Notes: generated from the letters alone by a model not told the origin. Shown: positions 10,978 to 45,319, counted from the first letter of the stretch. The stretch is 64,000 nucleotides of DNA from Escherichia coli (GCA_002099625.1 GCA_002099625.1_4857.1); one strand, 5' to 3'. Program-made: numbers and translations.

Positions 10978-11035
10978 CAAAAAAATAAGTAATGCGAGTA
11001 CCCCTAACGGGGTACTCGTTTGCTTTATTTTTTAG
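10977..11035. terminator. Bidirectional intrinsic terminator between convergent genes
   Basis: A-run, stem CGAGTACCCC / GGGGTACTCG (10995..11018) with TAAC loop, then T-run. Confidence 0.6.
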
Positions 11036-20241: not shown

Positions 20242-21100
20242 TGGAACTCCAGAATCTATACGTCGCTAACGGAACGTCGTCGCTGACCTCATATTCTCTA
20301 CCGCTACGATGACGAACTTTGAAAGTGATTTCGAACTCACGTACGTCCAGCGCTTGTAAGATTATTAGAAACCAACGCCAGGTGATTGCCTCGGTGTGAC
20401 GCATCGCCTGTTTCATGTTGTTTCGTCTGTCCCCACGTTTGGATGATGTGCCTGGGCACAACTTAGGGTTGTTGACGTAGTTCGTCGTCCACCGTTCCAG
20501 TTTATCACCATCGATTTTATACCCACGAATAACTTTGTAGATTAAACGCAGGAGAATGTGCTTCATCACATGTTCGATAGTGTGGTCGATGTTCGCGACA
20601 TACTCGTTAACGTCGTAAGATGCGGGATGCTCGAAACGCTCTTTACGTTTCTTCCTGTTCTCATTACGTAAGTTCTTAATGAAGTCCTCACGCACAAACG
20701 TACTGTCGAATACAAAACACTTCGTGTCAAAGCTTCCCCGCTTAGTCAGCAGGGTGACTGTTAGCGTTTGCATCTCCAGGATAACTAATCCCTCGATGAA
20801 ACGTTTCCACGTAAAATCGACTGTCAGGTTACGTACCGAACCACCCGTAAGTGAGGTGTTCAGCCGGTTAACGCGGTCGGTCATCGTGGTCAGTTTGCTG
20901 TCACGAAACTGTTTCAGATACTCCGGGTCGTTGACATGTTGACGGATAAGGTCTTTCCATATCCCGTCGCTAATACCCATCAACTTAACCAGATTCCAAT
21001 AAGCTTTCCTTAACGGGTAGCTGGAATCTGACGCCGGTGGCGTACCGTGCCAAATTTGCTCGCGTGTGCTATTCAGCGGCGGCTTTTTCTCATCATCCAT
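20222..21100 (-). CDS. Hypothetical protein (292 aa)
   Basis: ORF in array; basic patches. Confidence 0.55.
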   Translation of the reverse strand: MDDEKKPPLNSTREQIWHGTPPASDSSYPLRKAYWNLVKLMGISDGIWKDLIRQHVNDPEYLKQFRDSKLTTMTDRVNRLNTSLTGGSVRNLTVDFTWKRFIEGLVILEMQTLTVTLLTKRGSFDTKCFVFDSTFVREDFIKNLRNENRKKRKERFEHPASYDVNEYVANIDHTIEHVMKHILLRLIYKVIRGYKIDGDKLERWTTNYVNNPKLCPGTSSKRGDRRNNMKQAMRHTEAITWRWFLIILQALDVREFEITFKVRHRSGREYEVSDDVPLATYRFWSSNETEQP

Positions 21101-21133
21101 ACATCACCTTGTTACAAGGGAATAGATTAAAAG

Positions 21134-21664
21134 TTAGAGATAGTGTTCCACTATCACTTCTAACTCGCGGAAGATATGTGCGGTTTGATTAAACAGCGTA
21201 TCCTGTTCGGGTGTTTGTTTATCAAATGCACGCTGATACAGTTCTAACATAGCGAAGACTGTGCGCAGTTTATCGCGCGCGACTTCAGGATCGGATGCAC
21301 CGAAATAATGATCAAGCCATCGTGGTTCTGAACTCTCTCCTTTTCTATCGATTGCCTCAGGCAACTCTAACCAACGTTGATTGGGAATGTTGCTACTGGA
21401 TACACGGTTATACTCAGAAATGAAGAATTCCAATCGCTCCACCAACGTGTCAAAATCTCGAATACGTAATTCGAGTTGTCCACGCAATGAAAAAGGAAGG
21501 TATTCTTTCCCATTATATTCCAGAGGCTCTGTAATGAGTTCTAAGCCCACCATCACTCTGTGCAGGGTGTTATGGGTATTCTTATGAAACTCAGCCTCCA
21601 AAGAGCGTCTGCGAGCTTCTATAGCCTTACGACGCAGGAGTGTTGAAAGCCATTTAAAAAGCAT
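21134..21664 (-). CDS. Hypothetical protein (176 aa)
   Basis: ORF whose upstream region carries the TAGATAATATCT near-palindrome. Confidence 0.5.
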   Translation of the reverse strand: MLFKWLSTLLRRKAIEARRRSLEAEFHKNTHNTLHRVMVGLELITEPLEYNGKEYLPFSLRGQLELRIRDFDTLVERLEFFISEYNRVSSSNIPNQRWLELPEAIDRKGESSEPRWLDHYFGASDPEVARDKLRTVFAMLELYQRAFDKQTPEQDTLFNQTAHIFRELEVIVEHYL

Positions 21665-21697
21665 AGGTGTTATCCTATTATGAGATGTTGTCTCGGA

Positions 21698-21710
21698 TAG
21701 ATAATATCTG
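21698..21710. promoter_or_regulatory. Near-palindromic motif TAGATAATATCTG (site 1 of 3-4)
   Basis: In the divergent region between 21134..21664 (minus) and 21741..22211 (plus). Confidence 0.4.
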
Positions 21711-21740
21711 TCTGAGTTCTTTTTGAGATGAGGTTATCCC

Positions 21741-22211
21741 ATGAGCGAAGAAGTGAAATACCAAGCGTTCGACGGAGATGTGGACAACGAAGATTCGCTT
21801 CTCCGCCAAACACAACAGCTACGCGTTAAGCTCGTCACGGATATGGTGAACGACGGTGAAGTACACAAAGACTTAAAAGCCGTCGACCGAATCGAACGCC
21901 TAATCAACGGCATCGACAAACAGGTCATGACGAAGCGGAAAATTAAAGCTGCTGAGAAAGGCGCTGAGGCGACTCAAGATTTGGCCAACAGTTTAAACGG
22001 CTTCTTAATGACCCGTGCAGGCGTTGGTATCAAACGTCACGACGATGAAGAAGATTTAAATAACGGATACCAACCCACCGTCCCACAGATTGCCGCAGTA
22101 CGGCCTCCGAAAGAAGGTGAGTTGGCACCAGTAGGCGAAAAGATTGACGTTGACCAGATCATGGCGTCTGCGTTTGCGAGTCGTCGTCCTGCTGATGACG
22201 ACGAAGACTAA
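21741..22211 (+). CDS. Hypothetical acidic protein (156 aa, C-terminal DDDED)
   Basis: Isolated plus-strand ORF inside the minus-strand block; its 3-prime end overlaps the convergent gene 22159..22887 by 53 nt. Confidence 0.5.
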   Translation: MSEEVKYQAFDGDVDNEDSLLRQTQQLRVKLVTDMVNDGEVHKDLKAVDRIERLINGIDKQVMTKRKIKAAEKGAEATQDLANSLNGFLMTRAGVGIKRHDDEEDLNNGYQPTVPQIAAVRPPKEGELAPVGEKIDVDQIMASAFASRRPADDDED

Positions 22212-22887
22212 ACAGAGCAGTGTCCTTTACGTCAGTACCGACGTATTGAGCAAGAAAACGGGTGGACTCCTTAAAGGGGTTCACCTTATCTCTTTTTATT
22301 TGCGCGATTGCTTCTTCCGTCAATTCGCTGGTCAGCATACTCGGTCGGGTAATGGTGAAATCCGGAATCGGTTTCTGGAAATGGCCCGCGTGTTGTTCTA
22401 TCCACGGGTACCAGTCGTACATTATCCAACCGTCCCACGCCGAAGCAAGTCGTCCTGGTGTAAGATCGCTGTGAGGAATAACAACGACGTCTACTTGCAC
22501 TTCGTTGTAGTAGTAGCGAAGTTCTTCCAAAAACGCATGACGTTCTTCATCATCGAGATCGGCGTATGGCCACAGGTTAAACGTTAAGACAGGTCGCTCG
22601 ATAGGAGCGTGCATCTGTATCGTCATTAACATTGCCTGTACTTCGTTCTTTAGCGTAAGCAACATTTCTGTTGGCTGCGCGTTCTGCAACGCGCGTTTAT
22701 CACGCTCCGCGAACTTTTTATTCCAGTCCTGAATTCCTACCACTTCGGCCCACGCATCCGTGAACCGCATCCGATACACTTCTAAATCAAGCTTCTCTAA
22801 TACATCAGGCTGCAGCACTTTCGCCCAACCAATTCGTGTATCGAAGATTGTGTCGATATCGACTAAGAAACGGCGTCCTAATCTCAT
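22159..22887 (-). CDS. Hypothetical protein (242 aa)
   Basis: ORF; ATGA-type overlap with the upstream gene. Confidence 0.5.
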   Translation of the reverse strand: MRLGRRFLVDIDTIFDTRIGWAKVLQPDVLEKLDLEVYRMRFTDAWAEVVGIQDWNKKFAERDKRALQNAQPTEMLLTLKNEVQAMLMTIQMHAPIERPVLTFNLWPYADLDDEERHAFLEELRYYYNEVQVDVVVIPHSDLTPGRLASAWDGWIMYDWYPWIEQHAGHFQKPIPDFTITRPSMLTSELTEEAIAQIKRDKVNPFKESTRFLAQYVGTDVKDTALFSLRRHQQDDDSQTQTP

Positions 22888-23552
22888 TCCGGGCGTCCTA
22901 AGTTGTTACCGATGTGCATTGCTTTAAAGTACGAAGACCATGTACGCGGCGCTTTTGAACTGGTACGCTCAGCCCCTTCCAGGTTGATGCGACCTTTACC
23001 GGTTTGCCGTAGCGATTGATAGAACGCACGTTGTAACGTATCGTTACCACCACGCGCCCACAGGAACTCCTGGAGCGTTGAGTCGTGTCCATCCGAGTAC
23101 ATGATGTACGCTTCTGGAAACGAAACACCCGAGGCTTTGGAAGGCCCTACTACCTGACCTGAGAGTTTATCGCGGACTTTATCGTTCTTCGCCACCGCCA
23201 TTTTCTTCTCTTGCATCTGCGTCTGGCGACGTGCAGGTAGCCGGAAGACTAAATGGGGGTAACGGGTACGCTGTAGGATACCGGTTTTCGGTTCCGTGAG
23301 CCACAGGCGCTGACACAAGTTCAGTCCCATCGCTTCGCAAATTTTAATATTGCGCATATGGTCAATTTTGACCTTGCCGCCAGTTGGGTTGTAAACAGGC
23401 AACCCTTCGCGCAGACGATTGAACTCTTCGTCAGACATTCGTGAGAAAGCGCGCTTGGCAGCTTCCGCGTTAATCCCGGTCGGGTCAACTAAGTTCAGTA
23501 ACTGTAAAGCATAAGCTTCTGCTTTTTTTCGCCGTGCCGGGTCTAATCTCAT
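22884..23552 (-). CDS. Hypothetical protein (222 aa)
   Basis: ORF, 4-nt start/stop overlaps with neighbours. Confidence 0.5.
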   Translation of the reverse strand: MRLDPARRKKAEAYALQLLNLVDPTGINAEAAKRAFSRMSDEEFNRLREGLPVYNPTGGKVKIDHMRNIKICEAMGLNLCQRLWLTEPKTGILQRTRYPHLVFRLPARRQTQMQEKKMAVAKNDKVRDKLSGQVVGPSKASGVSFPEAYIMYSDGHDSTLQEFLWARGGNDTLQRAFYQSLRQTGKGRINLEGAERTSSKAPRTWSSYFKAMHIGNNLGRPE

Positions 23553-23824
23553 TTTTTCATCCTCTCGCGGAGCACTGGAAGAACCACACGTTCCAGGTCT
23601 TCAATCCAGTACGGGATATCTTCATTGTGTTCAGGCACACCGACCGCATCAACCTTCGGTTTATCATTAATCAGGTTGCCGTAATGGGCATTTACCTGAT
23701 GACTAAATTCAGACAGTGCATGTCGCGGTGCTGAGAACTCGTTATGGAACGCGGTGCTAAGTTCCTGGCTAATACCAGCGAGACCCAGACACAGACGCTC
23801 TACAATATCTTTCTGATAACGCAT
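23549..23824 (-). CDS. Hypothetical protein (91 aa)
   Basis: ORF in array. Confidence 0.45.
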   Translation of the reverse strand: MRYQKDIVERLCLGLAGISQELSTAFHNEFSAPRHALSEFSHQVNAHYGNLINDKPKVDAVGVPEHNEDIPYWIEDLERVVLPVLRERMKK

Positions 23825-23837
23825 CGCTAATCCTCAG

Positions 23838-23864
23838 GGGAAAAAACAGGCGGGTTGCCCCGCC
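23838..23864 (-). terminator. Intrinsic terminator (minus strand), weaker
   Basis: Stem GGCGGG / CCCGCC with TTGC loop, followed on the minus strand by TGTTTTTT. Confidence 0.4.
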
Positions 23865-23869
23865 CATGC

Positions 23870-26532: not shown

Positions 26533-26588
26533 AAAGTAAGCAGTACCCACTCCCCTTACGGGAGTGGGTAGGCTTTATTTTATTTCGG
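26527..26588. terminator. Bidirectional intrinsic terminator
   Basis: A-run, stem TACCCACTCCC / GGGAGTGGGTA (26544..26570), T-run; lies between convergent genes. Confidence 0.6.
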
Positions 26589-29261: not shown

Positions 29262-29274
29262 TAGATAATATCTA
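29262..29274. promoter_or_regulatory. Near-palindromic motif TAGATAATATCTA (site 2)
   Basis: About 35 nt upstream of the start of gene 28494..29228. Confidence 0.4.
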
Positions 29275-29281
29275 TCTCAGA

Positions 29282-35382: not shown

Positions 35383-35436
35383 AGAAAAAAAGAACTACCT
35401 ACTCCCAAGGGAGTAGGTAGGCTTTTATTTTTTTAT
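35381..35436. terminator. Bidirectional intrinsic terminator
   Basis: A-run, stem CTACCTACTCCC / GGGAGTAGGTAG (35395..35420), long T-run. Confidence 0.6.
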
Positions 35437-38355: not shown

Positions 38356-38367
38356 TGATAATATCTA
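38356..38367. promoter_or_regulatory. Near-palindromic motif TGATAATATCTA (site 3)
   Basis: Between the macro-domain gene and the secreted SLT gene, about 90 nt upstream of the latter. Confidence 0.35.
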
Positions 38368-38865
38368 TTTGAAACTATTTGGGATGATTTTCTCTGCTTC
38401 CTTTAGCAGTGTGTCCGGTAAATAGAATCGATAAGTCTGCTCCGTGTGTTGTAGTCGTTTCTGTAAGTGTATAAAGATTTCCAATCGCTCATGGTAACGT
38501 AACCAACCGTTAGCCATCCCTAGGGGCGGTATCGCAATCCCTCCTTCTAAGTCTTCCCCTAGTCGCGCCAGCGCATCAATGCCGGACGTGACATAGTAAA
38601 TCTGCGATTTATAGCGAAAATGGGTTTTAGTAGGAAGGAGTATTACCCCTTCCTCAGGATAACAATAGACCTCACCGATAACGATTTGCTCTTTACGACA
38701 TTTCTGGCGATAGTCATTATAAAGCGATGGGAAGCGTTCTCGGCACGCCAAAGCAATGCCCCTTCCCATTGCACCAACACAGTTAACTGTAACGACCTTG
38801 AAGCGCTCAGGCGCGTTAAACAAGTCGTGGGAGATAACGGCCTCGTCGATCAGTTCGAGTGACAT
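38365..38865 (-). CDS. Macro-domain protein, TARG1/DarG-like subclass (166 aa)
   Basis: VTVNCVGAMGRGIALACRERFP matches the TARG1-type C..MGAGIA..F...F motif (recalled from memory); downstream IAIPPLGMANGWLRY fits the second conserved block. Confidence 0.6.
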   Translation of the reverse strand: MSLELIDEAVISHDLFNAPERFKVVTVNCVGAMGRGIALACRERFPSLYNDYRQKCRKEQIVIGEVYCYPEEGVILLPTKTHFRYKSQIYYVTSGIDALARLGEDLEGGIAIPPLGMANGWLRYHERLEIFIHLQKRLQHTEQTYRFYLPDTLLKEAEKIIPNSFK

Positions 38866-45290: not shown

Positions 45291-45319
45291 GTTATAACAT
45301 CAGTCTGAAAACTTTTCGG

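Follow-up and report, generated by a model that had tools for sequence, protein, structure and literature searches.

Two convergent genes, gp219 and gp220, share their last 53 bp in the window (the whole 64-kb stretch of DNA analyzed here). Both are genuine genes under strong purifying selection. The shared bases are constrained in both reading frames, and beyond each stop codon a candidate hairpin lies within the coding sequence of the partner. We consider it rather likely that an ancestor of the clade lost the intergenic spacer, leaving doubly constrained codons at the junction, and that candidate 3′-end hairpins were rebuilt in synonymous sites of the respective partner gene.

The gp219/gp220 locus and the reality of both genes

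SPN3US-like jumbo phages that infect Salmonella and E. coli (Seoulvirus) show 98-99.5% identity to region 21100-23600 of the window, and, judged by sequence, the window originates from an SPN3US-like nucleus-forming jumbo phage. The gp220-like gene (SPN3US_0220) occupies 21741..22211 on the plus strand and encodes 156 amino acids from an ATG start codon. The product is acidic, as the sequence-only reading had proposed, with a pI of 4.7 and 32 aspartate and glutamate versus 22 lysine and arginine residues. It matches PHROG 5894 over residues 1-155 (E = 6.6e-61) and has homologues in 85 phage records and 45 protein-database clusters. Within a long stretch of minus-strand genes, gp220 is the solitary gene on the plus strand. 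The gp219-like gene (SPN3US_0219; 22159..22887, minus strand) also starts with ATG and encodes 242 amino acids that match PHROG 3328 end to end (E = 5e-85). Its product is a homologue of phiKZ ORF147, and tblastn finds homologues in 171 phage records, reaching phiKZ, PhiPA3, and jumbo phages of Ralstonia and Vibrio. The SPN3US amber mutant am30 maps to Q91 of gp219, which is listed as essential (PMC5105663).

gp219 is the last gene of a tightly packed block, gp217-gp218-gp219, with 4-bp overlaps between the stop codon of one gene and the start codon of the next. Upstream of gp219 lies gp218 (22884..23552, minus strand), the C-terminal fragment of the virion RNA polymerase (vRNAP) beta subunit (PMC5105663), and upstream of gp218 lies gp217 (23549..23824, minus strand), which is preceded on the same strand by a gene for a UvsX-like recombinase. 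Between the stop codon of the latter (23870) and the start codon of gp217 (23824) we observed a GC-rich hairpin (GGCGGGTTGCCCCGCC, 23846-23867) with a T-run on the minus strand; it is likely a terminator, which would leave almost no space for a gp217 promoter. On the other side of gp220, the next minus-strand gene is gp221-like (21134..21664), with a promoter-like motif 27 nt 5′ of its ATG.

The convergent overlap of 53 bp claimed from the sequence alone is borne out, as the ORFs 21741..22211 (plus strand) and 22159..22887 (minus strand) share 22159..22211, and both GenBank and RefSeq annotate SPN3US gp220 and gp219 with the identical 53-bp overlap. The same reading had allowed for a mis-called gene, in which case one ORF would be spurious and no true overlap would exist. 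Pairwise Nei-Gojobori comparisons with unsaturated dS yield dN/dS values of 0.06-0.15 for gp220 and 0.06-0.14 for gp219, far below 1 in both genes. Both families are widespread and match their PHROGs end to end, the gp219 amber mutant is lethal, and synonymous change is suppressed in both frames (see below). Moreover, the overlap cannot vanish by choosing another start, because a convergent overlap is defined by its two stop codons. A mis-call is therefore extremely improbable, even though neither protein has a Pfam or PDB match and some public records differ at this place.

These records are the phiEaH2 RefSeq entry (NC_019929; 941-1834), in which the gp220 homologue is absent and the gp221 homologue is lengthened by ∼120 codons antisense through gp220, and that of Caitlin (1869-2291), in which an additional antisense ORF covers the gp220 homologue. 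Given the conservation of gp220, both look like mis-annotations. Annotators should neither trim nor drop either gene, as happened in the phiEaH2 record. In another set of records, LR535901, LR535903-LR535908, LR535911-LR535913, and LR535917 (SPFM1, 5, 6, 7, 8, 9, 10, 12, 14, 15, and 20), the window is matched only as 20-40 short pieces and the gp219 and gp220 proteins are truncated, which points to assemblies with many indels and not to a true disruption of the genes.

A Pfam scan of gp219, gp220, and four neighbors returned no match, and sequence searches of the PDB with gp219 and gp220 returned nothing meaningful. The AlphaFold2 model of gp219, built on a nine-sequence alignment, was poor (pLDDT 55), and Foldseek found no match for it in the PDB at E <= 0.001. 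An N-terminal DIDT, which has the appearance of a motif, does not fit the HAD pattern DxDxT. A literature search for SPN3US together with gp220 found nothing relevant to detection of the gp220 protein.

Conservation, origin, and dual coding of the overlap

Conservation of both frames in related phages had been suggested as a check on the overlap, and the pair and its overlap are indeed present in the window and in all 32 related loci measured. These loci comprise annotated phages of the genera Seoulvirus, Erskinevirus, Machinavirus, Wellingtonvirus, and Derbicusvirus, IMG/VR contigs, and Logan metagenome contigs. The overlaps are 23, 35, 44, 47, 50, 53, or 56 bp long, all 2 mod 3. Derbicusvirus has the 23-bp overlap; in pEa_SNUABM_29 (35 bp), the gp219 tail ends 18 nt sooner and its Q-T-P end is missing, from which one would expect gp219 to tolerate the loss of at least its last 6 residues. 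We regard the convergent arrangement of gp219 and gp220 as not accidental, because the same relative phase is found in the window and all 32 loci, and because this is the sole junction without a spacer among the four close convergent junctions of the window.

Only the outgroup Moabite (Moabitevirus) possesses a spacer, which is 35 bp long and contains the perfect hairpin GTGGAGGG-TAAC-TTCCCTCCAC; its gp220 relative is recognizable in the N-terminal half. In phiKZ-like phages, the gp219 homologues end with ...YFSMF(K/R)(P/A), which aligns with ...LFSLRR(H/P) of the window, and a gap of 44-133 bp follows before the next convergent gene. Because the phiKZ-like proteins stop at this aligned position, the ∼12 gp219 residues past LRR are, by this alignment, a clade-specific extension. 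We infer that the last common ancestor shared by Seoulvirus, Erskinevirus, Machinavirus, Wellingtonvirus, and Derbicusvirus lost a spacer with a bidirectional terminator, of the type retained in Moabite and at the other convergent junctions of the window, and that the two 3′ ends then slid into one another. The gp220 stop codon would thereby have come to lie inside the conserved C-terminal core motif of gp219 (L-F-S-L-R-R), and gp219 would have been extended by ∼12 codons up to a stop made by the invariant Ile-Met codons of gp220. In the window, the gp220 stop TAA lies within the conserved L-F-S codons of gp219 (TTT AGT, reverse complement ACTAAA), and the gp219 stop TGA lies within the I-M codons of gp220 (ATCATG in the window, ATTATG in relatives).

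The dual-coding segment (22159..22211, both strands) reads (I)MASAFASRRPADDDED and stop in the plus frame and (F)SLRRHQQDDDSQTQTP and stop in the minus frame; gp220 ends with ...SRRPADDDED and gp219 with ...HQQDDDSQTQTP. Position 3 of the plus frame is opposite position 2 of the minus frame and vice versa, with position 1 opposite position 1. Therefore, no substitution is silent in both genes. Both tails read RR...DDD because the codons CGT for arginine and GAC for aspartate are mutually reverse complementary in this phase. An (R)RP...acidic pattern recurs in the gp219 and gp220 tails of most relatives.

Synonymous variation in the overlap carries the signature of dual coding. Third-position entropy is 1.06 inside the overlap versus 1.46 and 1.47 outside, and the reduction holds for both genes (Mann-Whitney p ∼5e-4 each). 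Among sequences that encode the same amino acid, codons differ with a frequency of 0.29 inside the overlap versus 0.51 and 0.60 outside. In gp219, Arg-230 is encoded by CGT in 10 of 11 cases, Thr-240 by ACG in 9 of 10, and Pro-241 by CCG in 10 of 11. Ala-153 of gp220 is almost always GCG, with a third-position entropy of 0.57, compared with 1.3-2.0 at other invariant four-fold codons. Besides the second frame, an inverted repeat at the center of the overlap (TCGTCGTCC TGCTG ATGACGACG, 22181..22203, both strands) could account for part of the reduced variation.

The length of the overlap is a different matter. When gp220 was recoded synonymously, most trials left the minus frame open over at least its native length (the median equaled the native length in 18 of 22 lineages, and 73% of the trials for the window reached at least the native length). 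The overlap length is thus not beyond chance, and the gp220 protein sequence alone largely sets the stop of the minus-strand ORF. This result also rules out the open minus frame as proof of selection on the gp219 tail.

Candidate hairpins past both genes

The three other close convergent junctions of the window (10977/11032, 26532/26595, and 35382/35441) have spacers of 54-62 bp, and each contains a bidirectional terminator (10995-11018, 26544-26570, and 35395-35420, both strands) with an A-tract, a GC stem of 10-12 bp, a loop of 2-5 nt, and a T-tract. A single hairpin of this kind is absent between the gp220 and gp219 stop codons, where there is no spacer. The sole hairpin of the overlap, the inverted repeat at 22181-22203, has no flanking A/T tracts and is not followed by a U-run on either strand. 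The earlier claim that the junction has no room for a terminator thus holds for the intergenic position, as there is neither intergenic space nor an intergenic terminator. However, it does not hold beyond that, as hairpins are found on both strands inside the coding sequence of the partner. An Rfam scan of 21000..23000 gave no match with E values up to 1.

On the minus strand, a candidate 3′-end hairpin of the gp217-219 transcript starts 27 nt past the gp219 stop (22063..22132). It runs from 22132 to 22063, antisense to the gp220 codons GYQP...GELAPVG, and is predicted to act as a terminator or stabilizer. Its minimum free energy is −42.7 kcal/mol (z = −4.33, with none of 200 shuffles as good), whereas the plus strand of the same DNA has a z score of only −0.59. 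The hairpin is under selection at synonymous sites of gp220. In the window, the native minus strand (−40.6) is not reached by any of 300 synonymous recodings of gp220 (−26.4 ± 3.8), whereas the plus strand shows no such excess; across lineages, the native hairpin beats the recodings in 19 of 20, with z scores of −1.9 to −5.2.

RNAalifold on 18 lineages resolves an outer stem of 12 bp, with each pair present in at least 15 of the 18 (at least 16 at all but one). Two positions of this stem hold a near-invariant G·U pair, which would be an A-C mismatch on the plus strand. Compensatory changes occur at six pairs of the hairpin, one of which takes UG, GC, AU, GU, and CG, and the apical stem persists despite changes in its sequence. 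On 15 lineages that include the divergent Derbicusvirus and Wellingtonvirus, RNAalifold gives a weak consensus; the structure is clear in the core clade and in the explicit pair count. Derbicusvirus has no minus-strand hairpin.

The hairpin is followed on the minus strand by a U-rich tract (U UAUUUAAAUCUUCUUC, 22045..22062), which is coded by conserved E/D-N codons of gp220. The tract reads UUAUUUAAAUC in the window (UUAUUUAAAUCUUCUUC, UUAUUU) and (R)UAUUUUC(A/U)(C/U) in relatives. It is short and interrupted, and resembles the TTAT that follows the hairpin in the terminator motif of phiKZ (PMC10914365). With a length of ∼70 nt and internal loops, the hairpin itself is atypical for an intrinsic terminator.

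On the plus strand, a terminator scan identified a candidate terminator of the gp220 transcript at 22260..22286, 49 nt past the gp220 stop. This hairpin, antisense to the gp219 codons VNPFKESTR, has 12 pairs (6 of them GC) and a loop of 3. Its z score is −2.31 on the plus strand versus −0.57 on the minus strand. Covariation is seen as well: 77.4% of the cells are paired, compared with 70.0% after shuffling (a value as high was not reached in any of 500 shuffles), and at pair 19-37 six sequences have CG and five have GC. Seoulvirus, Wellingtonvirus, and part of the metagenomic lineages carry the U-run that follows (22287..22302, UAUCUCUUUUUAUUUG; UAUCUCUUUUUAUUU); Erskinevirus and most of Machinavirus lack it. 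The recoding test is significant and the U-run present in about half of the lineages; because it is missing or weak in the others, the plus-strand hairpin is no universal solution.

Two further features of gp220 variation were observed. Its first ∼35 codons (21741-21845) show low third-position variation, with a sliding entropy of 1.1-1.3 compared with ∼1.5 elsewhere, and even relatives that share only ∼68% DNA identity overall differ little in the first 25 nt (ATGAGCGAAGAAGTGAAATACCAAG), which may reflect a translation-initiation or promoter-proximal constraint. In addition, the proportion of synonymous differences between the same two phages is lower in gp220 than in gp219 in all lineages (e.g. 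0.52 versus 0.68 and 0.54 versus 0.73), consistent with an extra RNA-level constraint on gp220 imposed by the antisense hairpin and by the 5′ region.

Transcript ends, antisense overlap, and known systems

The 76-bp spacer between the divergent genes gp221 and gp220 contains a quasi-palindrome (21692..21716, both strands; CTCGGATAGATAATATCTGTCTGAG, reading CTCAGACAGATATTATCTA on the minus strand) that is conserved in 15 of 15 aligned lineages, with the gp220-side arm less conserved. Its core, AGATATTATC (21700-21709), occurs three times in perfect form in the 64 kb, always on the minus strand and in spacers, 25-40 nt upstream of minus-strand genes. The copies of the motif, (C)TCAGA(Y)AGATATTATC(T/A) on the minus strand, lie at 21692-21716, 29264-29279, and 38357-38372, with weaker ones at 45293, 47113, and 50881. 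The 16-mer pattern has 10 matches with up to 3 mismatches versus 1.2 expected. The motif agrees with the conserved AT-rich motifs that, as a rule, precede early operons in jumbo phages that encode RNA polymerases (PMC7598289). It probably represents one class of promoters used by a phage-encoded RNA polymerase, and the copy at 21692-21716 is likely a promoter of this kind for gp221, possibly also serving gp220. The scan also matched 21692-21716 as a plus-strand terminator, but the element is better read as a palindromic promoter-like motif. gp221 thus seems to begin a new unit, which would fit an end of the gp217-219 transcript between 22159 and 21716.

The conserved promoter-like element of gp221 bears on a reading of passive compaction, in which the overlap arose neutrally when the spacer was lost. 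Minus-strand transcription would then continue through gp220 into gp221 and farther, and the hairpin would be a processing site or a block to 3′-exonucleases in a polycistronic RNA, with nothing regulatory about it. Such read-through would agree with an overlap length that is the default of the gp220 protein sequence, with a gp219 tail that has been shortened in nature, with the dense packing of jumbo-phage genes in long co-directional runs, and with a minus-strand hairpin that is long, branched, and followed by a weak U-tract. We nevertheless judge it unlikely: an own promoter-like element of gp221 suggests a unit boundary, the hairpin is under strong selection in a strand-specific manner, and all other close convergent junctions are insulated by a strong terminator, as if the phage avoids head-on read-through.

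In the favored reading, with spacer loss followed by rebuilt 3′ ends, the gp217-219 transcript would end or be stabilized at the hairpin 22132 to 22063 and the subsequent UUAUUU, the gp220 transcript would end at the plus-strand hairpin 22260..22286 and its U-run, and transcription would restart for gp221 at its own promoter-like motif (21692..21716). If both transcripts end at these hairpins, complementarity between the mRNAs would extend over ∼22045..22302 (∼250 nt), and collision of polymerases or duplex-dependent decay could follow. The antisense interference that the sequence-only reading had deduced from the overlap is possible; it is a logical consequence of the arrangement, in which the two transcripts necessarily have complementary 3′ ends. 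A literature search found no transcriptome or promoter data for SPN3US-like phages.

A stronger version of antisense interference would turn the junction into an excludon-like regulatory module that acts as a temporal switch. Once the gp217-219 block is activated, the 3′ extension of its transcript would pair with the gp220 mRNA, or polymerases would collide, so that gp220 is turned off; the reverse could also apply. Arrangement and phase conserved over five genera, the position of gp220 as a lone inverted gene in a minus-strand run, the ∼250-nt transcript overlap created by the placement of the hairpins, and antisense RNAs reported in phiKZ and other phages (PMC10914365) all speak for such a switch. 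However, conserved synteny alone accounts for the conservation, half of the lineages do not conserve the plus-strand element, and Derbicusvirus, with its 23-bp overlap and no minus-strand hairpin, indicates that a module is unnecessary for the pair to coexist. We therefore hold a switch of this type to be quite unlikely. It is just as doubtful that the interdigitated hairpins form a conserved regulatory module that times or balances the vRNAP-subunit block (gp217-219) and gp220 in the phage nucleus, with each transcript ending within the other gene and acting through paired 3′ ends of ∼250 nt or through head-on traffic of polymerases; the long minus-strand hairpin, kept purely via synonymous codons of gp220, would then be the key RNA element.

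The overlap flagged in the window is thus neither an annotation error nor an exotic system but a case of genome compaction. It exemplifies what may become of a compact jumbo-phage genome after convergent genes lose their spacer, namely double constraint and probable transcript-end hairpins in the synonymous sites of the partner. For the engineering or recoding of SPN3US-like phages, it marks a stretch of ∼250 bp (22045-22302) in which nominally “silent” changes would probably have an effect. The coordinates given here may also serve studies of termination by phage-encoded multisubunit RNA polymerases.

Convergent overlaps typically comprise mostly a few bases. Like other convergent overlapping genes of bacteria and phages, gp219 and gp220 are two real genes on opposite strands with shared 3′ ends, doubly constrained bases, and suppressed synonymous change. 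However, their overlap is longer (53 bp) and inherited over five genera in one phase, and a conserved partner motif surrounds each stop codon. Excludons are pairs of antisense transcripts that overlap at their 3′ ends, for example in Listeria. Convergent units, overlapping transcripts, and possible mutual repression would be shared with them, whereas opposing functions or a regulatory outcome would be hypothetical for gp219/gp220.

Bidirectional intrinsic terminators, such as the three in the window and the six regions mapped in phiKZ (PMC10914365), share with the candidate gp219/gp220 hairpins the task of ending two converging units and the build of a GC-rich hairpin followed by a U- or TTAT-type tract. 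In contrast, the gp219/gp220 junction has two strand-specific hairpins ∼130 nt apart (22132 and 22260), each within the partner gene, and the minus-strand hairpin of gp219 is far longer than the canonical terminator stem of 10-11 bp. A location within coding sequence is likewise known from ONT-cappable-seq of Pseudomonas phages including phiKZ, where 28% of the mapped terminators lie in the downstream neighboring gene and 9% antisense to genes (PMC10914365). Whereas those were end-mapped experimentally, the gp219/gp220 terminators are predicted and backed by covariation and synonymous-site tests. The gp219/gp220 junction belongs to kinds already known, overlapping genes in convergent orientation and terminators located within coding sequence, and its new details are the specific hairpins and their maintenance at synonymous sites.
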